This document shows, one piece after another, positions 1,263 to 56,100 of a DNA stretch of 64,000 nt. The position numbers were made by a program, and so were the translations under genes. Positions within the stretch are counted from its first letter, which is position 1. Each line of letters opens with the position of its first letter. The notes under the pieces are model-generated. The model made no database searches. It saw only the letters and a program-made list of their open reading frames with translations, and had not been told where the DNA came from. Origin of the DNA: Leucoraja ocellata (taxonomy: Eukaryota). The stretch covers positions 4,526,001-4,590,000 of the forward strand of contig JAWMAR010000012.1 of assembly GCA_036785375.1 (NCBI GenBank), given 5' to 3'.

Positions 1263-1989
1263 TCTATATTACTAAAAGTCTGTTCTTGACCGGTTTTGGC
1301 GATCTGTGCTGCGATTTCCGAGAGAACGCCGCCACCTACAGCTGTCATTTTTGGCCACCTCGCTCAGAGCCCCCCTCCGCCACATGTGTGCTGAGGATTT
1401 TTCCAGTCAATGAAAAATGACAAAGATATTAATCATTTTACAAAATTCTCCATTCTCCCTGCTGCCCCCGCTGGCGGCAGGGGGGGTGGACTATAAAACC
1501 AGGAAGTGGTGTACCACAATTAGTCTGCAAGCTGGAGGAAGGCAGATGGTCATGTTTCTCCGAGCTGTGAATGACACTGAACACATGTCCACACAATTGT
1601 GAGTAAGTACCCGTAATGTGGTTTGAAAATGAAAATATGGTTAAAGTAACAAAACACTGCCTGCAAATGGTTGTTTGGGGGGTTTGGGTTGAAATAAAAA
1701 TACACTCTCCCCTCCCTCCCTCCCCCCTCCCCCTCACTTTCCCTCCCCCCCTCTCCCCCCCTTCTCTCCTCTCTCCTCCCCCCCTCCTCCCCTCTCCTCC
1801 CCCCCTCCTCTCCCCTCCTCCTTCTCCCCACTCTCTCCCCCTCTCCTCTAAACCCTTTCATCTCTATATCCTTTCCACTCTCTCCCCCCCCTCCACCCTC
1901 CCCTCTCTACACCTCCCTCCCCCTCTCACCCCCTTGCCCCCCTCCCTGTGTGTGTGAGAGGGGTGGTTAGTGTGTGTATGACATCACAG
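1263..1989 (+). mobile_element. Non-autonomous Helitron, 5' portion (3' hairpin/CTAG end missing)
   Basis: Starts A|TCTATATTACTAAAAG, the same 5' end as the copies ending at 30409 and 54133, and is collinear with them. Contains a C/T-rich tract at about 1706-1947. Confidence 0.75.
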
Positions 1990-5626: not shown

Positions 5627-6089
5627 ACAATAGACAATAGGTGCAGGAGTAGGTCATTCGGCCCTTCGAGCCAACACCGCCATTCAATGTGATCATGGCT
5701 GATCATCCACAATTAGTACCCTGTTCCTGCCTTCTCCCCATATCCCCTGACTCCACTATATTTACCACCCCTATCTAGCTCTCTCTTGAAAGTATCCAGA
5801 GAACCGGCCTCCACCACCCTCTGAGGCAGAGAATTCCACAAACTCACAACTCTGCGACAAAGTGTTTCCTCATCTCTGTTCTAAATAGCTTACCCCTTAT
5901 TCTTAAGCTGTGGCCCCTGGTTCTGGACTCCACCATCATCAGGAACTTGTTTCCTGCCTCAAGTGTGTCCAAACCCTTAATACTCTTATATGTTTCAATA
6001 AGATGCCCTCTCATCCTTCTAAATTCCAGAGTATACAAGCCCAGCCACTCCATTCTCTCAGCAGTCCAGCCACCAGCAGTCCCACCACC
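5627..6089 (-). mobile_element. CR1 LINE 3' end (distal half of a split copy)
   Basis: Encodes LGLYTLEFRRMRGHLIETYK...RTRGHSLRIRG with a (CTATTGT)n tail. Collinear with the minus fragment at 8979-9355. Confidence 0.85.
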
Positions 6090-8978
6090 GGAGAAAGGGG
6101 CAGACTGACAAGGGACGTCAGGGACAGTATAAAAATTCAAGCAATGAAGTACAACATAGCAAAGATGAGTGGGAAGCAAGAGGATTGGGTAATGTTTAAA
6201 GAACAACAGAAGATAACCAAAAAGACAATACGGGGAGAAAAGATGAGGTATGAAGGTAAGCTAGCCAAGAATATAAAGCAGGATAGTAAAAGCTTCTTTG
6301 GGTATGTGAAGAGGAAAAAATTAGTTAAGACCAAAGTTGGACCCTTGAAGACCAAAAAAGGTGAATTTATTATGGGGAACAAGGAAATGGCAGATATGTT
6401 GATCAGGTACTTTTGATATGTCTTCATTAAGGAGGACATAAACAATCTTCCTGATATAGTAGTGGCCAGAGGATCTGGGGTGTGGAGGAACTGAAGGAAA
6501 TCCACATTAGGCAGGAAATGGTGTTGGATAGACTGATGGGACTGAAGTCTGATAAATCCCCAGGGCCTGGTGGTCTGCATCCTAGGGTACTTAAGGAAGT
6601 GGCTCTAGAAACTGTGGATGCATCGGTGATAATTTTCCAATGTTCAATAGACTCAGGATCAGTTCCTGTGGATTGGAGGGTAGCTAGTGTTATCCCACTT
6701 TTTAAGAAAGACGGGAGAGAGAAAACAGGAAATTATAGACTAGTTAGCCAAACATCAATGGTGGGGAAGATGCTGGAGTCAATCATAAAAGATGAAATAT
6801 CCGAACATTTGGATAGCAGTAACAGGATCGGTTCGAGCCAGCATGGATTTACGAAGGGGAAAAATTGCTTGACTAATACTCTGGAGATTTTTGAAGATGT
6901 AACTAGGAAAATGGACAAGGGAGAGCCAGTGGATGTAGTGTACCTGGACTTGCAGAAAGCATTTGATAAGGTCCCACATAGGAGATTAGTGGGCAAAATT
7001 AGGGCACTTGGTATTGGGGGAAGAGTGCTGACATGGATAGAGATGTGGTTGGCAGACAGGAAACAAAGAGTAGGGATTAACGAGTCCCTTTCAGAATGGC
7101 AGGCAGTGACTAGTGAGGTACCGCAAGGCTCGGTGCTGGGACCACAGCTATTTATAATATACATCAATGATTTACAATACAATACAATTTATTTGTCATT
7201 TGGACCCCGTTAAGGTCCAAACGAAATGTCGTTTCTGCAGCCATACATTACAAAACGAAAAAGACCCGAGACACAACACAATTTACACATACATCCATCA
7301 CATCGCTGTGATGGTAGGCAAAAAAAACTTCTCTCCACTGCACTCCCCCCCCCCCCGCCCGATGTCAGAGTCAAAGTCAAAGCCCCTGGTGGGCGATGGC
7401 GATTGTCCCACGGCCATTTAAAGCCACGCCTGGTGATGCAAGGTCGCGCACCGGGTCTTGGTGTTAGAGCCCCGGCGGGCGCTCGCAAAGTCCCGTGGCC
7501 ATTCCAAGCCGCGTGGGGCGGTGATGTATGGCCCCGCTCCAGGTGTTCTTCAACCCCGCAACTCAGGCGGGAGAAGTCGCCGCTGCGGAAGCCCCAAAAA
7601 GTGGTCTCCCACCAGGGACCCGCGGGCTTCCGGTGTTGCCGTCCGCCAGACCCGTGGTTGTAGCCTCCGAAACTCCGGGGGTTGGGTCGCAGCAGCGCTC
7701 TACCACAGGTCCACCCGCTCCGGACTCGGCCAGTTCCGCGACGGTGAGTAGGACCGCAGCTCCGCAACTGGAGCCCCCGGTCGTTCCTGTTGGAGGCCGC
7801 TCCACGTTGCAGCCCCAATGACAACGGAGACCCGACAAGAAAAGGTCGGGTCTCCCGTGCAGGGGAAAGATTTTAAAGCTACACCCCCCCCCCCCCACAC
7901 ACACATACTCCGACAAAAAAAAAAAAAAAACTACATAGAAACGAGACAAAAATAATAAAATACAGATGGACTGCAGAGGCCGCTGCTGACGAAAGTCGCG
8001 CCGCCATACCTTCATTTGGATGAAGGGATTCAAAGTAACATTAGCAAATTTGAAGAGGACAGAAAGCTGGGTGGCAGTGTGAACTGTGAAGAGGATGCTA
8101 TGAGAATGCAGGGTGACTTGGACAGGTTTGGGGAGTGGGAAGATGCGTGGCAGATGAAGTTTATTGCGGATAAATGTGAGGTTATCCACTTTTGTAGCAA
8201 AAACAGGAAGGCAGATTACTATCTAAATGGCATCGTTGGGAAAAGGGGAAGTACAACGGGATCTGGGGGCCCTTGATCATCAGTCTATGAAAGTAAGCAT
8301 GCAGGTACAGCAGGCAGTGAAGAAAGCGAATGGCATGTTGGCCTTTACAACAAGAGGAATTAAATATAGCAGCAAAGAAGTCCTTCTGCAGTTGTACAGA
8401 GCCCTAGTGAGACCACACCTGGAGTATTGTGTGCAGTTTTTGTCCACTAATTTGAGGAAGGACATTCTTGCTATTGAGGAAGTGAAGCGTAGGTTTACAA
8501 GGTTAATTCCCGGGATGGTGGAACTGTCATATGCTGAGAGAATGGAGCAGTTGGGCTTGAACATACTGGAGTTTAGAAGTATGAGAGGGTTTCTCATTGA
8601 AACATATAAGGTTGTTAAGGGTTTGGACATGCTAGAGGCAGGAAACATGTTCCCGATGTTGGGGGAGTCCAGAACCAGGGGCCACAGTTTATGAATAAGG
8701 AGTAAGCCATTTAGAACAGAGACGAGGAAACACTTTTTCTCACGGAGAGTGGTGAGTCTGTGGAATTTTCTGCCTCAGCGGGAGGTGGAGGCAGGTTCTC
8801 TGCATGCTTTCAAGAGAGAGCTACAAAGGGCTCTTAAATATAGCAGAGTCAGGAGATATTGGGAGAAGGCAGGAATGGGTTACTGATTGGGGATGATCAG
8901 CCATGATCACATTGAATGGTGGTGCTAGGTCGAAGGGCTGAATGCTCCTGCACCTACTCCTGCACCTATTGTCTATTG
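6090..8978 (+). mobile_element. 5'-truncated CR1 LINE ORF2 (reverse transcriptase), disrupted
   Basis: Motifs KSPGPGGLHPRVLKE, QHGFTKGK, DVVYLDLQKAFDKVPH, VPQGSVLGP, LYRALVRPHLEYCVQF. Contains stops/frameshifts, a ctattgtctattgt tail and an insertion at 7174-8013. Confidence 0.92.
7174..8013 (-). mobile_element. GC-rich non-autonomous retroposon inserted in CR1
   Basis: ATTT target duplication (7170-7173 / 8014-8017). The minus strand ends gacaaataaattgtattgtattgt. The host CR1 reads through when the insert is removed. Confidence 0.8.
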
Positions 8979-9355
8979 TCACCCCGGGAATTAACCTTGT
9001 GAACCTAAGCAGCACTCCTTCAAAAGCAAGAATGTCCTTCCTCAAATTTGGAGACCAAATCTGTACACAATACTCCAGGTGTGGTCTCACGAGGGCACTG
9101 TACAACAGCAGAAGGACCTCTTTGCTCCTATACTCAACTCCTCTTGTTATGAAGGCCAACATGCCATTTGCTTTCTTCACTGCCTGCGGTACCTGCTTAC
9201 TTTCACTGACTGATGAACAAGGACCCCCAGATCCCGTTGTACTATCTCTTTTCCCAACTTGACACCATTTAGACAATAATCTGCCTTCCTGTTTTTGCTA
9301 CCAAAGTGGATAACGTCACATTTATCCACATTAAACAGCATCTGCCATACATTTG
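8979..9355 (-). mobile_element. CR1 LINE fragment (proximal half of the copy split by the 6090-8978 insertion)
   Basis: Encodes QAVKKANGMLAFITRG...RPHLEYCVQIWSP...RFTRLIPG and continues at 6089; cacc occurs at both junctions. Confidence 0.85.
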
Positions 9356-12424: not shown

Positions 12425-13072
12425 CTAGACCAAGTGGGACCCATTGGGTCCCGTCTCCTCAACGTGTGGCTGCGGGGGAAGGGGTGGTCTGCGGCGTCAC
12501 ACACACNNNNNNNNNNNNNNNNNNNNNNNNNNNNNNNNNNNNNNNNNNNNNNNNNNNNNNNNNNNNNNNNNNNNNNNNNNNNNNNNNNNNNNNNNNNNNN
12601 NNNNNNNNNNNNNNNNNNNNNNNNNNNNNNNNNNNNNNNNNNNNNNNNNNNNNNNNNNNNNNNNNNNNNNNNNNNNNNNNNNNNNNCAAGCCACCTGACT
12701 GACTCAAGACAGACCCGAGCAACCTGAGACCGACCCGACCTGACCCGAGTCAAACTTGATATCTTGTTCTTCACTCACAGCGCGTGGAACACAGCGTGCA
12801 GATCCATTGTGACATCATCAGCGAAAGACAGACGTTTTTTTCTGATTTTTGAACATTCTCATCAATAACTCGAGAAATAAAGCATGAATTTTTCAGATAA
12901 GGCCATTTGCAGATAAGGCCAAATCTCTACCGGAATATGTAAATTTTTACTGTTAGCATGTCGTTTTTTCGAGAAGATGGGATTATACACAAACAAACAA
13001 AGACACACACAAATAAAGACACACACAAACAAATACATCCACATACAAGATCAGACTTTTAATAGTTATTGA
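12425..13072 (-). mobile_element. Non-autonomous Helitron (spans an assembly gap)
   Basis: Minus strand reads A|TCAATAACTATTAAAAG ... gggacccaatgggtccc hairpin, 7 nt, CTAG|T. Confidence 0.8.
12507..12686. other. Assembly gap (180 N)
   Basis: Run of n. Confidence 1.
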
Positions 13073-14826
13073 TATACAAGCTATATTATAATATACAAGC
13101 TAATATATTACAAGCCCTGCTTGTACACACAATCAGAATTTGAGAGTCAAACAAAAACTTGGCTAAATTTTAACTAGATATTTGGACATGGAACTGTTGC
13201 CATTGAATTGTTTAGCCACAGTACACATCATCACATCTTGGATGTTGTGGATTTCAGTAAAGAGAACGATAGTGTCGAGAGTAAGCGAAGTTGGATCATT
13301 TTGGCTCTTTTGCAGTAAGTTATTAAAATTAACTCAATTATATTATTTTTAAGACAACATTAATTAAAATGAGCAAAAATTAGGATCTTTGTTGAAGAAG
13401 GGGAAACAAGAGATTAATTTGAAGATAAAATTGATTCTAGGTAAAGACAGTACAGTCAAGATGTCAAAAGCATGCCACCCAAGATGTACTAGGAACTGGT
13501 AATTTGCTTTGCAATTAAAGGAAAATTATCTTATGCAAAATAAATTGTAAACCCGGCTTTTGATACTGTGCTACACTACTAAATAACTATTAAGCTGATG
13601 ACAGATTGAAGTCTAACCTGTCTCTCCATTGGCAGACACTCAACGCATTAATAAGATGGATGGCACGGTGCATAATAACTCTTTGGCTCTTTGGACATCG
13701 TATCTAATCAATTCATACAATGAGCTATGTCCACAACTAATAATTGGGATTGTATAACGTAGTTTCAGATTGGTCCAGTTGGGAAATAAATTAGACATTT
13801 GCTCAGCTGATGTGAAGATTTTCAATTTCTCCACAATAGATCACAATTGAGAAATACATTATGTCTGATTGTCATCCCACAGATAAAAATAATCATGCAG
13901 TGTGCTGGTAAGGGAGAACGAGCAATGTTAAGAGAGAGCATAGTTCAACATAACCATCTCCAATGATTTCTAAAAAATTATTCTCAGTCGAGTGAATCAA
14001 TAAGATTGGATCAAGTACCTGACCATAGTGGTCCTGAAAGACATCAGATAGGATGTGATAAATATGACAATTAAAATCAGATTATGACATATTATGCAGA
14101 TAAATTTAATGTTGTATAGTGTGTAGAACTTTGAGTAGTCTGCACTGCTGAAACACGGTCAGCCCACCAGACCATGGAAAAAGCACAAGAAAATAAGGAT
14201 CCCAGGAAGAATGAATAATGAAAAAAGGAAAAAGTGTTATATAAAGTTGAAGAATGGAATGCAGAAGGTTGCAATGTGCCTAGACACAAGATGAGGTGTT
14301 GCTCTCAAGTTTGCCTTGGTCCTGTTCTCTCAGTGCAGAAAGCCAAATTCAGAAAGATCAGACTGTGAATGGATACACAGGCTATACCAAATTAAACTGC
14401 AGGAGAAACACAGCGGGTCAAGCAACATCTATGGAGGCAAAGGGATAGTCATTGTTTTGGGTCGAGACCCTATGTCAGGACTGAGAGTGTAGAGTGTAGG
14501 CAGTTTAAAGATATGAGTGGGAGGGGTGATGTAGGGGTTAAAGGGTGACAGATGGAATGACTTAAGGAAGGGGATAATGGGCAGGGGGAGCCAGGTGGGG
14601 GATGGAGTTAGGATACAGTGGTTGGTAGGTGGAAGGTAGATTTGGACAAGGAGAGAGGAGGAAAATAGAGCAGATATAGCCAGGTGGGGAGAGAAGGGAT
14701 GATGAAGGCACAGACAAAGGATGGAAGTCAATAAATGGAGGCACAATAGGATGTAGATGCTGGAACCTGATAATAAAGAAAGGGGATAAGTGCAACCAAA
14801 TAAGGAGGGAGGTGGATGAAAAGAAC

Positions 14827-17286: not shown

Positions 17287-18143
17287 TGGCATGTAACAAA
17301 GGTAATTCCACTGTGGTTATGGGAGATTTCAATATGCAGGTAGACTTGGAAAAATAAGGTGTTATGACCTGGATTACACCATCTATTGTTCTCCAGCAGA
17401 GCAAGACCCCCACCTTTGATCTTCCCACTCGCCTTCGAGTCTCCATCCGTTTGTACCGTAGTGAAGCCGGGTAGATCCACACAGGAGTCCGGGATGTTGT
17501 CCGTCTCAGTGGAGTGGGGTTTGGGCAAATGATGGCCTTGTCAACTATGAACAATCTGTGCGAGTATAGTAATGAGTACATTATCAGCAATTGTCCTCTA
17601 TAACCGAGTAAGGGATTATGATTATGATTGAAAAATAAGTGGAAACAACTGTTTTCTGTTGTGCTGGAGCAAGCAAGAATTTAAATGTCCTATCTGGGAG
17701 ACATGACGATAAAACTCTCTTGACTCTTGATGCTTGTTAATATACAAATGGACACAAAGTGCTGGAGAAACTCAGCAGGTCATGCAGCAAATCTTGAAAA
17801 CATGGATATGGTGACCTTTCTAGTCAAGACTTCTTCAGATTTGGTCTGGAACTGGGCCTTGAATCCCGGTGAGGTTGATGGTCCCAACATTCTGGTGGCA
17901 GGGGAGAGGTGAGGATCGACTGTGTCATAGGCCGTGGCCTCGTGGGTGGCCGGAGGGCTGCCGATGAAGCTGCGCGGGCCGGCAGTGGTGGCTGTAGGTC
18001 CAGCCTGGTAGCAGCCGGGGGTGGCTTTGTGCACTGGGGGTGACATCGCCAACCTGGCCTGGAAGTGGCCAGGGAGGCTGGAATGGCGATAGCACCCTGG
18101 CCGGACTGTAAAAATCAGTAGGTCCATCCGCTTTAACCAAAGG

Positions 18144-20213
18144 CAGGAACGGGGTACTGATTGGGGATGATCAGACATGATCACATTGAATGGCGGTGTT
18201 GGCTCGAAGGGCCGAATGGCCTACTCCTGCACCTATTGTCTATTGTCTATTGTCAAATAGTATTGGGTAGACTGATGGGACTGAAGGCTGATAAATCCCC
18301 AGGGCTGATGGTCTGCATCCCAGGGTGCTCAAGGAGGTGGCTCTAGAAATCGTGGATGCATTGGTGATCATTTTCCAATATTCTATAGATTCAGGATCAG
18401 TTCCTGTGGATTGGAGGGTAGCTAATGTTATCCCACTTTTCAAGAAAGCAGCAAGAAAGGAAACAAGGAATTATGGACCAGTTAGCCTGACATCGGTGGT
18501 GGGGAAGATGCTGGAGTCAATTATTAAAGAAGTTATAACAGCAGGTGCTATTGACCTGCATGGGAAGGTAGACGCTCCCGCCTCCACGAGTCTCGGGCAG
18601 ATGGGGCTTGTCAGCCTAGGAAGGCAGTCCATCTAGGAGAAGGAAAACTGATTTAAAACCTCCACTGCCTTGTGGCCACATCCAGTCATGGAAAAGGCTC
18701 CAGGAGTAAACCTCAAGAAAATCCAGTCAGAGCCCCTAAGGCAGTTCGTCGTTGTCTACAACCTTACTCTGGCAGCTCCTGCGATGGCGCTTGTGCCAAA
18801 CTGTAATGGCCCTGCTGTTCCTTTGGATCGATCAGCGATGTGGAGAGGGGGGACGTGCTGCATGGGCAACAGCCTGTCCTCCATATGACATCGCCCAGGC
18901 TTGCATCTGACCAGGACTGAGAGGGGCCTACTTATAAAAACACACGTCAGCATGGATTTATGAAGGGGAAATCCTGCTTGAATAAACTTCTGGAATTTTT
19001 TGAGGATGTGACAAGTAAAATGGATGAAGGAGAGCCAGTGGATGGAACTGGACTATCAGAAAGCCTTTGATCAGGTCCTGCACAGGAGATTAGTGGGCAA
19101 AAGTAGAGCACGTGGTATTGGGCGTAGGGTATTGACATGAATAGTGAATTGTTTGGCAGACAGGAAACGAAGAGTTGGAAAAAACGGGTCCCTGTCAGAA
19201 TGGCAGGCAGTGGCGAGTGGAGTGCCGCAAGGCTCGGTGCTGGGGCCGCAACTATTTACAATATATATATTAATGATTTAGATGATGGGATTAAAAGTAA
19301 CACTAGCAAATTTGCAGATGACACAAAGCTGGGTGGCAGTGTGAACTGCGAAGAAGATACTAGGAGGTTGCGCAGGGTGACTTGGAGATGTTGAATGAGT
19401 GGGCAGATGCGTGGCAGATGCAGTATAATGTAGATAAAATATACACTTTTTGCGGCAAGAACAAGGAGGCAGATTAATATCTCAATTATGTCAGATTAAG
19501 AAAAAGGGAAGTGCGACAAGACCTGGGTGGCCTTGTACACTGGTCACTGAAAGTAAGCATGCAGGTACAGCAGACAGTGAAGAAAGCTAATGGCATGTTG
19601 GTCTTCTTAACAAGAGGGTTTAAGTATAGGAGTAAAGAGGTCCGTCTGCAATTGTATAGGTCCCTAGTGAGACCACATCTGTATTATTGTGTGCAGTTTT
19701 GGTCTCCTAATTTGAGGAAGGACACCCTTGCTATTGAGGCAGTGCAGCGTAGGTTCACAAGGTTAATCCCTGGGATGGTGGGACTGTCATATGAGAAAAG
19801 ATTGGAAAGACTGAGCTTTATTCACTGGAATTTAGCAGGATGAGAGGATATCTTAAAGAAACATATAAAATGATTAAAGGACTGGGACAAGCTAGATGCA
19901 GGAAAAAAAATCCCAATGTTGGGGGCGTTCAGAACCAGGGGCCACAGTCTAAGAATAAAGGGGAGGCTATTTAAAACTGAGATCAGAAAAGTGAATTTGT
20001 AGAATTCTCTGCCGGTGAAGGCAGTAGAGGCCAATTCACTGGATGAATTTAAAAGAGAGGTAGATAGAGCTCTGGGGGCTAGCGGAATCAAAGGATATGG
20101 GGAGAAAGCAGACATGCGTTACTGATTGTGGATGATCAGCCATGATCACAATGAATGGTGGTGCAGGCTCGAAGTGTCAAATGGCCTCCTACTGCACATA
20201 TTTCTATTTCTAT
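18144..20213 (+). mobile_element. CR1 tail (18144-18253) abutting a second disrupted CR1 ORF2 copy
   Basis: Motifs LKEVALEIVDALVIIFQ, SKFADDTKLGG, LYRSLVRPHL; typical CR1 3' end. Confidence 0.88.
18544..18940 (+). mobile_element. Probable RTE-clade 5' fragment interrupting CR1
   Basis: The motif ggcagtccatctaggagaaggaaaactgatttaaaacc resembles RTE-type 5' regions; CR1 resumes at gtcagcatggattta. Confidence 0.45.
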
Positions 20214-28734: not shown

Positions 28735-30409
28735 CTAGACTAAGTGGGACCCATTGGGTCCCATGTTCACATGGGAGGGCTGGTCCCCTGACGCAATATT
28801 CCACCTCTCCACCAATTCCAATATTGGTGACCAGTGCGGGGGGGGGGGGGGGCTTTCTGGAGTGCTGGTATGGGTTCTTGGGGTGGCAGCTCAGTCCCTC
28901 AAGCCTGAACTGCTGGCAGCTCACTCACGGCTGGTGGGCTGGCAGTTGACATGACTATTCCTTGAAATTCCATTTCAAGCAGGGTGCAAGGCCACCAAAT
29001 TCAAGTGCAGTTTCCAACCACTTCAAGCTGGATCCAAGGCCACCAAATTCAAGTGCAGCTTCATACCATTTCATGCAGGGTGAAACCACCATAAAACCAC
29101 ACAAAACTCACAGTTCAGTAGACATTCATTGTGTTCAGTTGATTCACAGCTCAGACAGTCATGACCTCTCCCTCCCCACCATGCAGAGACTGAGCCACAC
29201 CCACACTTCTGGGTTTTATAATCCCTCCCCCTCCCACCGGAAAAGGTATGGCTTTCAGGGCGTGATTGACAGGAGAGAGATTCTCAACATTTTTTAAACA
29301 CTAATAACTCTTTTATGTTTCATTGATGGGAATAATCGTCTGCACCTGCTCAGCGGAGGGGGGACTGAGTAAGAGGGCCAAAGATCACAGCCATAAGTGG
29401 TAGCGTTTTATCTAAAATCAATATGCAGTGCAAACAGGAAGTAAGTGCATTTGCAGTGGTGCTTTTCAACTTCAAGCCAAAGCACCCAAGCCACCATTTG
29501 CAGTAAGTAGTGCCTTTCAACTTTAAACCAAAGCTCCCAAGCCACCATTTGCAGTAAATAGTGCATTTCAACCTCATGCCAAGGCACTCAAGCCATCATT
29601 TGCAGTAAGTAGTGCCTTTCAACTTCAAACAACACACCAAAGCCACCATTTGCAGTAAGTAGTGCCTTTCAACTTCAAGCCAAAGCACCAAAGCCACCAT
29701 GTGCAGTAAGTAGTGCCTTTCAACTTCAAACAACACACCAAAGCCACCATTTGCAGTAAGTAGTGCCTTTCAACTTCAACCCAAAGCTCCCAAGACACCA
29801 TTTGCAGTAAGTAATGCCTTTCAACTTCGTCAAAGCACCCAAGCCATCATTTGCAGTAAGTAGTGCCTTTCAACATGAAACCAAAGCTCCCAAACCACCA
29901 TTTACAGTAAGTAGTGCCTTTCAACATCAGGTCAAAGCACCCAAGCCACCATTTGCAGTAAGTAGTGCCTTTCAACTTCAAGCCAAAGAACCCAAACAAC
30001 CATTTTAAGGCGGTGCCTTTTTACTTCAAACAAACCATATTTTCATTTTCAAACCACATTAAGGGTACTCACAGTTGTGTAGACATTTGTTCAGTGTTAT
30101 TCTGAGCTCAGAGAGACGTGACCCTTGGCTTCATCCATCTTGCAGAGACTGAGTGAGGCACACCACTTACTGGTTTTATAGTCCCTCCCCCTCCCTCCAG
30201 CAGGGGCAGCAGCGAGAATGGTGATTTTCTTTCAAAACATTAATATCTCTCTGATTTTTCATCGATGGGAAAAATCTTCTGCACCCATAAGGCGGAGGGG
30301 GGCTCTGAGCAAGGTGGCCAAAAATGACGGACGTAGGTGGCGGCGTTCTGTCGGAAATCGCAGCACAGTGGGCCAAAAGCAGTCAATATCAGAGATTTAG
30401 TAATATAGA
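28735..30409 (-). mobile_element. Non-autonomous Helitron with both termini (1675 bp)
   Basis: A|TCTATATTACTAAA 5' end; gggacccaatgggtccc hairpin (28746-28762) 7 nt before CTAG|T; no target duplication. Confidence 0.88.
29445..30030. repeat. 51-bp minisatellite (about 11 copies) inside Helitron
   Basis: Unit ccaccatttgcagtaagtagtgcctttcaacttcaagccaaagcacccaag; unit starts at 29491, 29542 and onward. Confidence 0.9.
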
Positions 30410-37835: not shown

Positions 37836-38324
37836 TCTGCAGATTGAGACTAAATGAGAATAATTGTGGACACATCCCAGACCATCACACAAACCAACCT
37901 GCCTTCTATTGACTATATTTATACCTCACTCTGCCTCGGCAAGGCCAGCAGCATAATCAAGGACAAGTCGCATCCTGGCCACTCCCTTTTCTCCCCTCTT
38001 CCCTCAGGCAACATGTACAGAAGTGCGAACACACACATCTCCAGATTCAAGGACAGTTTCTTCCCAGCTGTTATCAGGCAACTGAATTATCCTACCACAA
38101 CCGGAGAGCAGTGCTGAACTACTATCTCTACCTCTTTGGTGATCCTCAGACTATCCTTGATCTGACATTGCTGGCTTTACCTTGCACTAAACGTTATTCC
38201 CTTATCATGTATCTATACATTGTAAATGGATCAAATGTAATAATGTATTGTCTTTTTGTTGACTGGTTAGCACGTAACAAAAGCATTTCACTGTACTTTG
38301 GTACACGTGACAAAAAACTAAACT
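37836..38324 (+). mobile_element. Rex1/Babar-type LINE 3' fragment
   Basis: Encodes KASSIIKDKSHPGHSLFSPLPSG...RFKDSFFPAVIR. Confidence 0.8.
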
Positions 38325-46459: not shown

Positions 46460-46680
46460 ATAGAAACATAGAAATTAGGTGCAGGAGTAGGCCATTCTGC
46501 CCTTCGAGCCAGCACTGCCATTCAATATGCTCATGACTGATCATCCAAAATCAGTACTCCTCCGTTCCTGCTTTCTCCCCATATCCCTTGATTCCATTAG
46601 CCCTAAGAGCTATATCTATCTCTCTCTTCAATACAGTGAATTGGCCTCCACTGACTTCTGTGGCAGAGAATTCCACAGAG
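46460..46680 (-). mobile_element. Antisense CR1 3' end about 150 bp after the TNMD stop codon
   Basis: atagaaacatagaaattaggtgcaggagtaggcc is the reverse of a CR1 tail, homologous to 5627-5840. Confidence 0.85.
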
Positions 46681-49622: not shown

Positions 49623-51619
49623 GACATTAAACATTACTCAGCAACAATTTAATCTGATGAACACCTGCCAAACTCAGTGACTGCGACTTAATGCGACTCG
49701 ATTTAGCCAAGTTTAATTTGTATTTTAAACCAGATATTACTCAGATTTGGATGCTTTCTTCCACAGATTTCCATATAGGTCGTGTTTTATTCGATTGGCA
49801 GTATTTCCCTTCATCTTTTTTATATATGTACTCTTCTCAGCCATCACACATATCACAGGACTTTATTTCTCATCTAATGCTCCTCCACACTACTTTTGGT
49901 TCTTGCTGCCGTCAACTTTGATGGAAAAGGGAAATTAACTGGTGTGTAGGATGGAGTAACTTCTTTCATTGCTTAGGGTGGAGCTATAATGATTATGATA
50001 AATGATATTAAAACATTTATTACCATTATTGTTTATAGTTATTGCATGGTTTAATAAAAGGTTTGTCACAAATGTGTACGGTTGTGTCTATTTTTACTTA
50101 CCCTAGCGTTTGCCTTATTGTGTTGAAGAAAATTAAGGCAGTCTTTCAGAGTCTTGTTGACAGTTGCATGAGCCTCTACAGACCCTTCGTCTCCAGCGAG
50201 TGTTACATGTGGACGTGTTCATCAGTACCTTTAAATGTCCCAAATATTGACCTGAACACACCACTGATTGGTAGTATATAAAATAGATTGTAACTGCTTC
50301 GAAGTTGGTAGGCTCAGGATGGAGAGGGGGAATGTAGAGAAAGTTATAGAAATGTCAAAATAACACAATTTTGGAATTTATATTTGAACAAAATTAAACT
50401 GCAACATTTCTTATAATCCAAAGGTTATGCCAAAAATTGAATTATAGCAATAACTTAAATTTTTGTTTAACCCAGGCGATGATTTTTTGCTTGTAACCTG
50501 ATCAGATTGCATTGGTTTTGACAATTAACAAATAAAACTGCGCATCGTGGAAATTTGAAACAAAAACAGTAAATGTTGGAAACACTCAGTTGGTCATGCA
50601 GCATCTGTAGAAAGAGAACCAGTTAACAGAAGGGACCAACACAGGTGAGCATTGAACTGCGCAGTAACAGCACTAATTGTTGTGCCATTGTGCCATCCAA
50701 CTAGGGCGGCAAGTTGTGCAGCTAGTTCATTCCTGAATTTGGGTGCTGTTTGTGTGGAGTTTAAATGTTATCTCTCTGACTATGTGGATGCTCTGTTTTC
50801 CTGCTTTAGCCCAAAGATGTACAGGTCAGTAAGTAGGCCGGCCAGTGCAAATTGGTCCAAGTGTGTCATGAGTGTTCGGAGGAATTGAGGTGTGGGAGGG
50901 AATCGTGAAGCTGGAAAAAGTGCAGAGAAGATTTATGAGGATGTTGTCATGATTTAATCGCCTGAGCTCTAGAGAGAGGTTGGACAGGCTAGGACTTTAT
51001 TCCTTGCAACACAGAAGGCTGAGGGGTAATCTTATCGAGGTGTATAAAATCATGAGGGGAATAGAAAGGGTGAATGCACAGTCTTTTACCCAGAGTGAGG
51101 AAATCGAGAACCAGTGGACAGAGGTTTAAGGTGAGAGGGGCTGCCAGAGGAGATAGTTGCAGCAGGTACATTAACAACATTTAAAAGACATTTGGACAGG
51201 TACATGGATAGGAAAGATTTAGAAAGATACTAGACTAAATGGGACCTGTTGGGTCCCATGTTCACACGGGAGGGCTGGTCCCCTAACGCAATATTCCACC
51301 TCACCACCAATTCCAATATTGGTGGCCAGTGGGAGGGGAGGGAGGGGGCTTTCGGGAGCGCTGATATGGATGTTGTGGGCTGAAGGCACTGGTCTCCAGA
51401 GGGCTAGTATGGATATTGTGGGCCAAATGGATTCTTGGAGTGGCAGCTCAGTACCTCAAGCCTGATGTGCTGGTGGTTCACTCGTGGCTGGTGGGCTGGC
51501 AGTTGACTCACGGCTATTCCTTGAAATTCAATTTCAAGCAGGGTGCAAGGCCACCAAATTCAAGTGCAGTTTCTTACCACTTCAAGCAGGGTGCAAGGCC
51601 ATCAAATTCAAGTGCAGTT

Positions 51620-52747
51620 GGATTTATGATATCAAAGTAGAATACACAAAAGACATTTGTGCAAATCCAAAGAAAATGGAAGATTAGCTCTTCCTAACTT
51701 TCTTTTTTACTACTGGGCAACTAACATTAAAAATATAATCTTCATGTTGGACGATACATGTCAACAGGTAAATTGGTTAAAAATGGAGAGGGAAGATTAT
51801 TTGCTTTTTAATATAGGCTCGATTCTCCTATCCAATACATTTGAATAAGTCAACGTATGAGCAAAATCCGATAATACATAGTACTTTACGTATCTGGAAA
51901 CAGTTGAAATTATGTCTTAAACTGAGAAAATTGTCTCTCCTTCTGCCTATTGCAAACAATCCCTCGTTTAAACCGTCTACTTGAGATAGGGTGTTTGTTC
52001 AATGGAAAAACCTGGGAATTAATACTGTGGGAAGCCTCTATAAGAAGGGGACTCTCTTTTCTTTTCAAGAACTACAGGAGAAATACTATTTGAATGCAAA
52101 CAATTTTTTTAGATACTTTCAAATCCGAGATTATGGGAAAGCATACACACAATATTTTCCTTTTATAGGTCCAGATATATTAGACAATTGTTTGAATAGA
52201 CATGCCGATACAAGTAAGTTGATATCTTACATTTATAACACTCACTTAAATATTGATACCCCACCTTCTGTGATTTATAGGCGAGCATGGGAGGACAAGT
52301 TGGGTTTACCTATTTCAAAAGATATATGGGAGGAAAGCCTACTATACATACACTACTGTTCTTTAAATGTCAGGCATTGCCTGATACAATTCAAAATATT
52401 CCATAGGTTATTCTATTCAAAGACCAAATTGAATAAGATTTTTCCAACTGTCTCCTCTATCTGTGATAAATGTCACCTCCAAGAAGCCACCCTAACCCAT
52501 TCCTTTGTATCCTGTATAAAAAAAACAAGATTTCTGGACGTGAATATTCAATACCATCTCTAAAACACTCAAAATTCAACTGGAGTCAGATGCAAAACTA
52601 ATAATTTTGGGAATGTCAGAGGGCTGCTCTAAGTTAACGACATTCCAAAGACGTTTCCTTGACTATGGCTTAATCACTGCGAAAAAACATATTAAATTCT
52701 GGAAAAACATAACAGTTCCCACAGTGAAGAAGTGGATCACAGAAATG
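51620..52747 (+). mobile_element. L1/Tx1-type ORF2 C-terminal fragment (zf-RVT region) inside Helitron
   Basis: Motifs GRLALPNFLFYYWA, FFRYFQIRD, LIQFKIFHRLFYSKTKL, CDKC...ATLTHSFVSC. Contains stops; no poly(A) and no target duplication. Confidence 0.82.
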
Positions 52748-53195
52748 ACCATTTCAAGCAGGATGCAAGGGCACCAAATTCGTGCAGTTTCTTACCACTT
52801 CAAGCAGGGTGCAAGACCACCAAATTCAAGTGCAGTTTCATACCACTTCAAGCAGGGTGCAAGGCCACCAAATGTAAGTGCAGTTTCATACCACTACAAG
52901 CAGGGTGCAAGGCCACCAAATTCAAGTGCAGTTTCATACCACTTCAAGCAGGGAACAAGGCCACCAAATTCAAGTGCAGTTTCATACCATTTCAAGCAGG
53001 GTGCAAGGCCACCAAATGTAAGTGCAGTTTCATACCATTTCAAGCTGGGTGCAAGGCCACCAAATTCAAACACAGTTTCATACCATTTCATGCAGGGTGC
53101 AAGGCCAGCACATTCAAATGCAATTTCATACCATTTCATGCAGGGTGGAAGGCCACCATTTTTAAATGCAGTTTCATACCATTTCAAGCAGGGTG
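52748..53195. repeat. 48-bp minisatellite (about 9 copies) inside Helitron
   Basis: Unit ccacttcaagcagggtgcaaggccaccaaattcaagtgcagtttcata; two more units lie at about 51530-51619. Confidence 0.92.
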
Positions 53196-56100
53196 AAACC
53201 ATCATAAAACCACCATAAACCCACACAAAACACCACACTCACAGTTCAGTAGACATTCAGTGTGTTCAGTTGATTCACAGCTCAGACGGAGTCGTGACCT
53301 CTCCCTCCCCCAGCATGCAGAGACTGAGCTACATCCACATTTCCGGGTTTTATAATCCCTCCCCCCTCCCACCGGAAAAGGTGTGGCCTTCATGGCATGA
53401 TTGACAGGAGAGAGATTCTCAATTTTTTTAAAACACTAATAACACTTCTATTTTCATTGATGGGAAAAAACCTTTGCACCTGATGAGCGGAGGGGGACTA
53501 ACCAAGATGGCCAAAAATCACAGCCGTAAGTGGTAGCATTTTATCTAAAATCAATATACAATGCAAACACGAAGTTTTCAAGTTTAGACTACCAACCATT
53601 TGCAGTGCTTTTACTTCAACCCAAAACCCCACCAACCATATGCAGTGCTTTTACTTCAACCAAACCCCCCACCAACCATTTCCAGTGCTTTTACTTCAAC
53701 CCAAACCACCACCAACTATTTGCAGTGCTTTTACTTCAAACCAACACACATTTTCATTTTCAAACCACATTAAGGGCACTCAATGTCAGTAAAACCACAC
53801 TCACAGTTTAGTAGACATGTGTTATTCACAGCTCAGACTGAGAGAAGTGACCCTCTCACTTCCCCCATCTTGCAGAGACTCACTGAGGCACAACACTTCC
53901 AGGTTTTATAGTCCCTCCCACCAGCATGGGCAGCAGAGAAAATATCAACATTTTTTAAACATTAATAACTCTTTTATGTTTCATCAATGGGAAAAATCCT
54001 CTCGTCCTGCGCAGCGGAGGGGGACTCTGTGTAAGCTGGCCAAAAATCACAGCCGTAAGTGGCAGTGTTTATTTCTAAAATCATTAAACAGAAAAACAGG
54101 AAGTGGTCAAGATCTTCCTTTTAGTAATATAGATGGCAGATGGGATTAGCGTAGATGGGGCATCTTGCTCAGCATGGGCCGAATGGCCTGTTTCTGTGCT
54201 GTCGGTCTCTATGACTCAAAGGGGGCTTGTGCTCCTGGAGCTAGTAATACCATTTAATTAAAACAGGAGGAGAAGCATTCTCTCAGTATCAACCCCCTAA
54301 ATCCATCTCAGAGTGTTATTTATTGAAATAAAGTCACCTCCCTTCTTCTAAACTTGTAGAGAGTGTAATTCAGCCTGATCTATATTTCCTCATATGAAAA
54401 CCTTTTCATCCCAGGCAATAATGAAGTGACATTTCTCTGAAATGCCTCCAACATCAAAATATCCTTCTTTGATAGGAAGATGGAAACTGTTGCAGTACTC
54501 CAGATGTGGTCACACTAAAGTCTAATGTATTTGTAGTCAGACCTTTCTACTTTTATCACAGAAATCACAGAATGGTTACAGCACAAGAAGCCTTTCAGTT
54601 CATCAAGTTCACACCAATTCGGCAACAGACTAATCCACTTCATCTGCCCTCGGTCCAAAGCCCTGCAAAATCTAATTTTCACACATTTTTCCAGCTCTCT
54701 TTTGAATGATACATTTGAACCTTCCTTCATTAATATTGCTGGAAGTGCCTTCCTGGCCCGAAAAATGTACTTTGTAAAATAAATGTTCACATATTACTTC
54801 TGATTCTTTTGAAAATCATCTTCATTCTTTGTCTCAAGATCTTGATCCCTCCACCAGAGAGATTAGTTTTTCTCTGTCTACGCCAAATGTTTTTTAAATA
54901 TCTCTATCAATCCCCTCACAGCCTTCCCTGTTTTAAGGAAAACAACCCAGGTTTCCCTAGACCATACATATTACAACAGTCTCTTATCACTGGAATCACT
55001 TTGGTGAATTTCTTCTGCACTTTGTCTAAAGCCTTTATATCTGTTCTACACTCCATCACTTTTGCAATAAAGTCCAACATCCCGATTACCTGCTGTAATA
55101 CATACAATCCGTGATCCATTTAAGCCAGGGCACTCGAATGATATTTACAACACCACTATTAATCTCTATCCATTTAACAGACCATAGGGCATAGAATAGT
55201 ACTGCACAGGAACAGGCCATATGTCCATTCCGAACATAACACCAAGATAAACTAATTTAATCTGCCTGTACATGAGCAATATCCTTCCTTTCACTGTATT
55301 TCCATTCACCTGTCTAAATGCTTCTTAAATGCCACTACCACTCTTGGCAGTACGTTCCAAGCACCCACCACACTTACCCCACACTTCTACTTTACATATG
55401 CCCCTTATAAAAGTCAGGAATTCTTGCTGAAGCTTTATAGGATTTAGGTTAGTCTGCATTTGGAGTACTATGTGCATTTCTGGTCACCCCATTGCAGGAA
55501 AGATGAGGTTTTGGAGAGGATGCAGAAGAAGATTATAGAATTATGTCTGGATTAGAGGTAATTAGCTATAAGGAGAGGTTGGATGAGCTTGGATTGTTTT
55601 TCCAGGAGTATCAGAGGCTGAGGGGGACCTGGTAGAAGCATATACATTTATGAGAGGCAGACATAGGGTAGATAGTCAGAACCTTTTTCCCCAGGATGAA
55701 AATGTCAAAGACTACAGGAAACAGCTTTAGGCAAAGAGGGGCTAAATTAAAGGAGATTTGCAGGATAAGTTGTGCCTTGGACAGCACAGTGATACGCCTG
55801 GTGGAACCTTTGCCCGAGACCCAAGATTGATTCTGACCTTCTGTGCTGTCTTTGTGATTTGTCCTGTAATCACATGGGATTTCTCCGGAGGCTCCAATTT
55901 TGCCCATATCCCAAAACGTGTGGATTTGTAGGTTAATTGGCCTCTATAAATTGCTCGAGTGGTTGAAAAAGTAGGATAATATGGAATCAGTGTGAATGGG
56001 TGATCGATGGTTCCTCGGGGATTCGGTGAGCTGAAGGACCTCTTTCCATGCTGTATCTTTCACGCATTTAAGTTTCTTTACACAGAGATGGAGGGTGTCT

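Follow-up and report, generated by a model that had tools for sequence, protein, structure and literature searches.

Helitron copies in the window

The window, that is, the whole 64,000-nucleotide stretch of DNA analysed here, contains four Helitron copies, designated E1 to E4, and this identity is practically certain. Their coordinates and internal features are as follows.

1263..1989, plus strand: E1, Helitron copy; 5' end intact with A|TC at 1263; 81% identical to E3 over 453 bp
12425..13072, minus strand: E2, non-autonomous Helitron of another subfamily; 648 bp; 5' end TCAATAACTATTAAAAG; E3-type hairpin; 180 N inside
28735..30409, minus strand: E3, non-autonomous Helitron; 1,675 bp; TC at 30409, CTAG end at 28735, A|T site
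28746..28762, minus strand: terminator hairpin of E3, GGGACCC-AAT-GGGTCCC; 8 pairs counting the flanking T-A; CTAG 7 nt further
28970..29079, no strand assigned: tandem array in E3, 48-bp unit, 2.3 copies
29094..29419, minus strand: inner duplicate of the E3 5' module (~330 bp), 69% identical to 30051-30359
29455..30005, no strand assigned: tandem array in E3, 51-bp unit, 10.9 copies
51230..54133, minus strand: E4, non-autonomous Helitron; 2,904 bp; E3-like layout; A|T site within a CR1-type tail
51620..52747, plus strand: decayed L1-type ORF2 fragment, ~1.1 kb, within the 48-bp array of E4
52748-53195: E4 counterpart of the 48-bp array of E3, 9.4 copies

Read on the minus strand, E3 runs from 30409 to 28735 as A|TCTATATTACT...GGGACCC-AAT-GGGTCCC-ACTTAGT-CTAG|T, E4 from 54133 to 51230 as A|TCTATATTACT...CTAG|T, and E2 from 13072 to 12425 as A|TCAATAACTATT...GGGACCC-AAT-GGGTCCC-ACTTGGT-CTAG|T. 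All four window copies carry TC at the 5' terminus. The first-pass annotation had described three copies that start with TC, end with a hairpin 7 nt before CTAG and occupy A|T without a target duplication, and these boundaries of E2-E4 were exact on the minus strand; its fourth copy, E1, does retain the 5' end, on the plus strand. E1 keeps 727 bp and has lost the final ~60 bp with the hairpin and CTAG, and the hairpin of E4 has one mismatch (AAC-AGG on the loop side). When up to two mismatches were allowed, the hairpin pattern matched the window four times (three matches being the ends of E2-E4) vs 0.09 expected, and none of 100 shuffled windows reached four matches. Folded as DNA, the E3 hairpin has an energy of -8.6 kcal/mol (z -2.4), and the window hairpins range from -8 to -8.6 kcal/mol.

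E3 and E4 are built in a common order: 5' module, minisatellite, second module copy, 48-bp array and 3' end. Each copy of the duplicated 5' module contains TATAAAA (1492-1498 on the plus strand; 29214-29220, 30174-30180, 53348-53354, and 53904-53910 on the minus strand), and the inner copies also contain TGATTGACA (29263-29271 and 53398-53406, plus strand), which we take to be a TALE-type site. E2 has only its ends in common with E3 and E4, with no BLAST alignment between them, and among 80 3'-terminal 130-mers, none aligned to E2 over more than 100 bp vs 41-43 to E3/E4. The earlier description of four copies of one family therefore has to be revised: E1-E4 are a group of two or three mosaic subfamilies that share ends, and E2 resembles the others there only.

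The ORF2 fragment in E4, presumably L1-type, has neither a poly-A nor a duplication, and 4 nt of the array unit are lost; the zf-RVT profile stayed below the cut-off on it (E 0.039). The idea that this piece is cargo of the family was unsupported, as no other fetched locus spanned either of its junctions. Several nested CR1-type LINE fragments also occur in the window (5627-9355, 18140-20213, and 46460-46679), and no host exon was evident by eye among the window frames of at least 110 aa.

Genome-wide ends and insertion sites

A 28-mer from the 3' end had 7,930 exact matches in the 3.44 Gb assembly, whereas the reversed control had none. T was the next base after 7,693 of these ends (97%), with 237 exceptions. 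A sister 3' end with the hairpin CAGACCC/GGGTCTG had 8,080 matches, which brings both ends together to ~16,000; the 5' patterns matched 1,970 (E1-type) and 653 (E2-type) times. Across 197 distinct ends, the families differ at two stem pairs (G-C/C-G and G-C/A-T), which remain paired in 187/197 and 192/197; this covariation goes back to a single split passed on repeatedly and does not count as many events.

Sixty loci were taken with 7 kb upstream, 51 of them distinct. A 5' end could be recognised in 31 of the 51, and in the other 20 none was found within the 7 kb. TC stood at the 5' terminus in 28 of these 31 loci. For 28 loci and three window copies, the paired junctions as first called were A|T in 22/31, and internal 5' ends and stutter miscalls were among the nine called otherwise; once stutter was removed, A preceded TC in 54 of 63 heads. 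The k-mer common to both flanks did not exceed 2 nt at any of the 31 paired junctions (0-2 nt in the 28 loci), and for one locus (L132) a precise empty paralog lies at window position 38157. The seven distinct CR1-hotspot loci described below likewise show no target duplication. Among L001-L175, 10 of 90 loci were near-identical duplicates of a locus on the same contig, so the counts overstate independent insertions; the duplicates suggest that the assembly retains uncollapsed haplotypes or includes segmental duplications.

Six loci (L137, L138, L141, L152, L166, and L175) have an internal 5' end and a common upstream TTGCCTTGCC repeat flank. Loci of this type hold composite elements in which a new 5' end was acquired further upstream.

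RepHel partner elements

Genome-wide, PF14214 had 120 matches to Rep domains, many of them near-identical. The RepHel of family A is a stop-free frame of 1,851 codons with the first Met at codon 14 (G000:C2153, L046:6656 to L047:2208), and it contains PF14214, PF05970, and PF21530, that is, Rep and PIF1 domains. The profile search found no endonuclease domain on it. The protein matched Helraiser (7LCC) with an E value of 2.5e-101, has the HFH and Y..KY motifs, and begins with ~480 residues of charged tandem repeats. Autonomous family A copies stand in chains with short non-autonomous ones. The family B RepHel is decayed, and its protein is 65-70% identical to that of family A. Its words were present at a share of 0.23-0.29 in 18 sequencing runs (8 organisms, 10 studies), with no RNA run among those listed; we give this result no weight as evidence.

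The search for a RepHel copy with the same ends was successful. The element G000:C51:3174574-3181838, with a decayed RepHel, bears both E3 ends (84.5% identity over the first 359 bp, 79-83% in the 3' parts), and E3/E1-type 5' and 3' ends enclose a decayed RepHel in C51, C635, and C3155. Because the C51-type element matches the E3 ends, E3, E4, and E1 derive from family B ends. Family A, which gave the top RepHel matches, was rejected as the partner of E3/E4 since its hairpin differs; family B is the partner. For E2, the search for an autonomous partner returned only a match of 28-30 bp confined to the 3' end (L081/L082), or else a subterminal match of 75% to family A. Copies are about 88-95% identical in family B and about 92-99% in family A, indicating at least two waves.

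Together with the genome-wide ends, the lack of a target duplication, the empty paralog and the stem covariation, this RepHel with the same ends bears out the proposed identity as non-autonomous Helitrons. Derivation from Helentrons (HLE2), from satellite carriers or from another element class is extremely improbable: the internal minisatellite arrays do resemble the Helentron-borne arrays reported for oyster in the part of PMC7492417 available, but the sites are A|T rather than T|T, the ends are TC and CTAG, the RepHel has no endonuclease domain, and the partner element with E3 ends refutes it.

A target motif downstream of A|T

Free insertion sites were defined from the first 90 of 100 listed 3' ends; after the removal of 10 duplicates and 9 chain junctions, 71 sites remained, of which 67 begin with T. 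TAWA started at +7 to +9 in 44 of the 67 sites, compared with 6.7 in AT-matched background (maximum of 17 in 5,000 draws) and 7.9 in shuffles. Position +8 was A or T in 70/71 free sites, and T occurred at +8 or +9 in 63/67. The motif was first noticed on L001-L030 (18/21), and in the later loci, which served as a held-out set, it was present in 26/46. Genome-wide, TAWA was found 9,473 times at +7 to +9 vs 1,230 times six bases further out (+13 to +15), with some double counting in both figures. All 16 free flanks of family A, about 12 of them distinct, had the motif, although two or three are possibly unrecognised 5' ends. The sites of E2 and E3 themselves scored only at the 76th and 45th background percentiles with the free-site matrix, so the motif is a preference, and very probably a real one.

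A mere taste for AT-rich or easily melting DNA, with 5' ends being hit for their AT-richness, might produce a similar picture. Free flanks are indeed AT-rich (mean 14.5 of 19 positions vs 11.4), and Helraiser favours AT-rich DNA 3' of the insertion, according to the part of PMC4778049 available. However, this explanation is very unlikely, given the AT-matched and shuffled counts above, the lack of TA enrichment at +4 or +14 in the free sites, the equal offset in barley (PMC5738225, available part) and the distribution of insertions within a single CR1 tail described below.

An insertion hotspot in a CR1-type tail

E4 lies in the 3' tail of a LINE, which we take to be CR1-type from its sequence features.

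50908..51229, plus strand: 3' part of the CR1-type LINE, left of E4
54134..54220, plus strand: remaining CR1-type tail to the right of E4; 12 nt absent beside the insertion

The target of E4 reads A|TATCTTTCTAAA, with TAAA at +9. It had been claimed that E4 splits this tail exactly. The A|T at the split point is real, being present in 18 of 23 paralogous tails, but 12 nt beside the 5' end of E4 are missing. The two flanks put together therefore do not make a complete tail, and an exact restoration by excision of E4 was ruled out. The word TAWA was already there in 11 of 23 empty paralogs of the E4 site; the target word thus pre-exists in the targets.

The E4 site of this tail carried 145 Helitron insertions in the genome, whereas another A|T site of that tail, ~20 nt from it and without the motif, carried none. 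The motif-less site is as common as that of E4, as judged from the empty CR1-tail sites in 1.62 Mb (9 vs 6). Among 30 fetched hotspot loci, eight (seven distinct) had the CR1 left half abutting TC, with elements of differing lengths; the others comprised one false match, two non-CR1 left flanks, four loose cases and a remainder that was too long or unclear.

CR1-like pieces also occur within autonomous Helitron copies, indicating that CR1 and Helitrons were active in turn. With these pieces and at least two waves, the single Helitron burst after the CR1 insertion that had been proposed is not upheld. A CR1-type 3' fragment lies in the 3' part of family A autonomous copies (G000:C2153 element, 12880-13395 of the joined stretch). 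In L006, L010, and L153, copies of different subfamilies stand at or next to one point within a different repeat segment, of the A|TTTTATATACTTCTATCAGG type; this point is likely a second hotspot.

Head-to-tail junctions and chains

The 5' ends of these elements themselves contain an A|T with a TAAA-type target 4-5 nt inside. The first 100 E2-type 5' ends were inspected by hand; with decayed variants counted, about 43 had a 3' end in front of them. Because the E2-type 5' pattern has a leading H and may miss precise CTAG|TC joints, junction types were counted from exact junction searches. In the first 100 of 202 exact E2-type junctions, 88 lacked the first five bases, which places TAAA at +8; three were at 3|4, one was a precise CTAG|TC and eight were of other types. 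When E2-type 5' ends were scored with a matrix derived solely from free sites, 5|6 came first, 3|4 second and 0|1 last, and the junction counts follow this order (88, 3, and 1).

E1-type 5' ends were seldom hit (78 junctions vs 1,970 ends). By hand count, 47 of the 78 junctions leave TATA, with TAAA at +9, and 16 are precise CTAG|TC. The matrix ranked 4|5 first for these ends, but none of the 78 junctions was there, and the matrix is therefore only partly right. Some E1-type junctions fit concatemers or insertion at a host A|T; the E1-type data also fit a rule, made post hoc, that T is required at +8 or +9 and that longer 5' variants are targeted.

Chains are usually interpreted differently, as rolling-circle concatemers or tandem duplications of the same Helitrons (PMC5876387 and PMC2267711, in the parts available), with joints that lost a few bases. 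The 16 precise E1-type joints and the near-identical tandem repeats of autonomous copies (C4112, 98%) agree with that account. Nevertheless, we consider it improbable as the main origin of these chains, since a precise joint was found in only one of 100 E2-type junctions and the number of missing bases depends on the family (5, 4, or 2), while TAAA is always at +8/+9. Neighbours in chains are also unlike one another: those compared were 78-84% identical over 50-176 bp (79% for L214; one pair reached 95% over 38 bp), and the upstream partner had the 3' end of another family in at least 14 of 30 cases counted by eye. Finally, remnants are located at chain heads. A TCTA/TCATA-type remnant was present in 6/6 chain heads, and 0/35 remnant-free heads lead a chain (p 0.0006), with only six chain heads available and the source loci partly picked for chains. 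Register-fixed insertion of elements into one another is, in our judgement, probably the main source of the chains.

The stutter at 5' ends could instead reflect joining that was aborted and restarted at one target, in one event with no later insertion. Eleven stuttered heads have no chain behind them (~5 expected by chance), the hotspot loci L270, L275, and L283 are stuttered without an internal 3' end, and stutter units are often more numerous than chain members. On the other hand, such an event leaves unexplained why the 5' end behind CTAG lacks its first bases, and in L214, L225, and L176 the remnant and the remainder together rebuild a 5' end; we regard it as unlikely, though less so than concatemers. 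As the hotspot-locus stutters lack internal 3' ends, their remnants were inherited or are of other origin. Some 5' ends are preceded by (TCTA)n runs of up to 14 units (L241, L248, L262, and L110-type heads), and repeated head insertion could have seeded GATA-type microsatellites.

Proposed mechanism

Helraiser is described as being nicked at the 5' TC, peeled off as a single strand up to a hairpin terminator, circularised and inserted at A|T (PMC4778049 and PMC5876387, available parts). The non-autonomous copies studied here are likely mobilised in trans by transposases of the RepHel type from other loci in the genome. The transposase would read the A|T step together with a TAAA/TATA word one helical turn downstream, its contact with the distal word being deduced from the motif. 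Because their own 5' ends contain a target site, the elements likely insert into one another and form chains. In such an insertion, the first 4-5 nt of the resident 5' end (TCTA or TCATA) would stay before the newcomer, and the remainder would follow the CTAG of the newcomer. In later rounds, copying from any TC to any hairpin may produce stutter at 5' ends and combine termini into mosaics, and it may account for the way in which interiors vary among the window copies. We consider this whole explanation, with Helitrons copied in trans, a two-part target and self-insertion into resident 5' ends, to be well supported and quite probable.

Comparison with known systems

Canonical Helitrons (HLE1) and Helentrons (HLE2) are defined in the available parts of PMC11417382 and PMC4224331. 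The elements have the HLE1 features, namely a 5' TC, a 3' CTRR with a hairpin ~11 nt upstream, A|T sites and no target duplication, and their partner is a RepHel (HUH Rep plus PIF1 helicase) with the same ends; the HLE2 features of T|T sites and an endonuclease on the RepHel are absent. Judged from sequence, the E1-E4 group is best classed as canonical HLE1 Helitrons, with the RepHel assigned through its pairwise match to Helraiser. The family is one more canonical group of a known kind. In the article texts searched, there was no description of skate or ray Helitrons, and the available parts of PMC5381603, PMC10468316, and PMC9804982 contain nothing on Helitrons of cartilaginous fish.

The closest likeness is to the Helibat/Helraiser HLE1 elements of vesper bats (PMC4778049, PMC5876387, and PMC4224331; 7LCC), which in the parts available share the TC and CTAG ends, the hairpin 11 nt from the end, the A|T site without duplication, and a single RepHel frame alongside many non-autonomous copies. 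Unlike Helraiser, the skate elements have end sequences of their own, and the family A protein has the ~480-aa N-terminal tandem repeats. For the Helraiser target, the same parts describe AT-richness on the 3' side only, with no fixed-offset word and no insertion into its own 5' ends.

Adjacent and nested Helitrons, multiple termini and chimeric ends are known from maize (PMC2267711 and PMC3288121, available parts). The maize joint is CTAG|TC at a host A|T, whereas in the present elements free targets predict the site, which is fixed to the exact base. Self-insertion of Helitrons was proposed in Fusarium (PMC5148889, available part), but that model concerns non-canonical elements and assigns them no fixed site. 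The article texts searched contained neither fixed-site insertion into own 5' ends nor a link from a target motif to chains. Head-to-tail arrays are cited as evidence for concatemers; the junction signature described here separates the two routes and favours successive targeted insertions. If this is true, CTAG|TA.. vs CTAG|TC at the junction would distinguish insertion from concatemers in any genome. The natural stop-free RepHel with matching ends also offers a means to assay target choice.

The asymmetric target itself is already published for barley, where the triplet AAA stands 8 bp beyond the A-T of the Helitron site and was read as a contact one helical turn away (PMC5738225, available part). 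The skate elements share with barley a downstream A-rich word at a similar offset; they differ in their vertebrate host, in the form of the word (TAWA at +7 to +9) and in its association with both chain junctions and a retroposon hotspot. The barley rule is thereby extended to a vertebrate, where it explains the retroposon hotspot and the 5' stutter. With moderate confidence, we propose that a two-part Helitron target reaches from barley to a vertebrate and that head insertion at a fixed base, rather than concatemer formation, builds most of the chains, stutters and mosaics in this genome.
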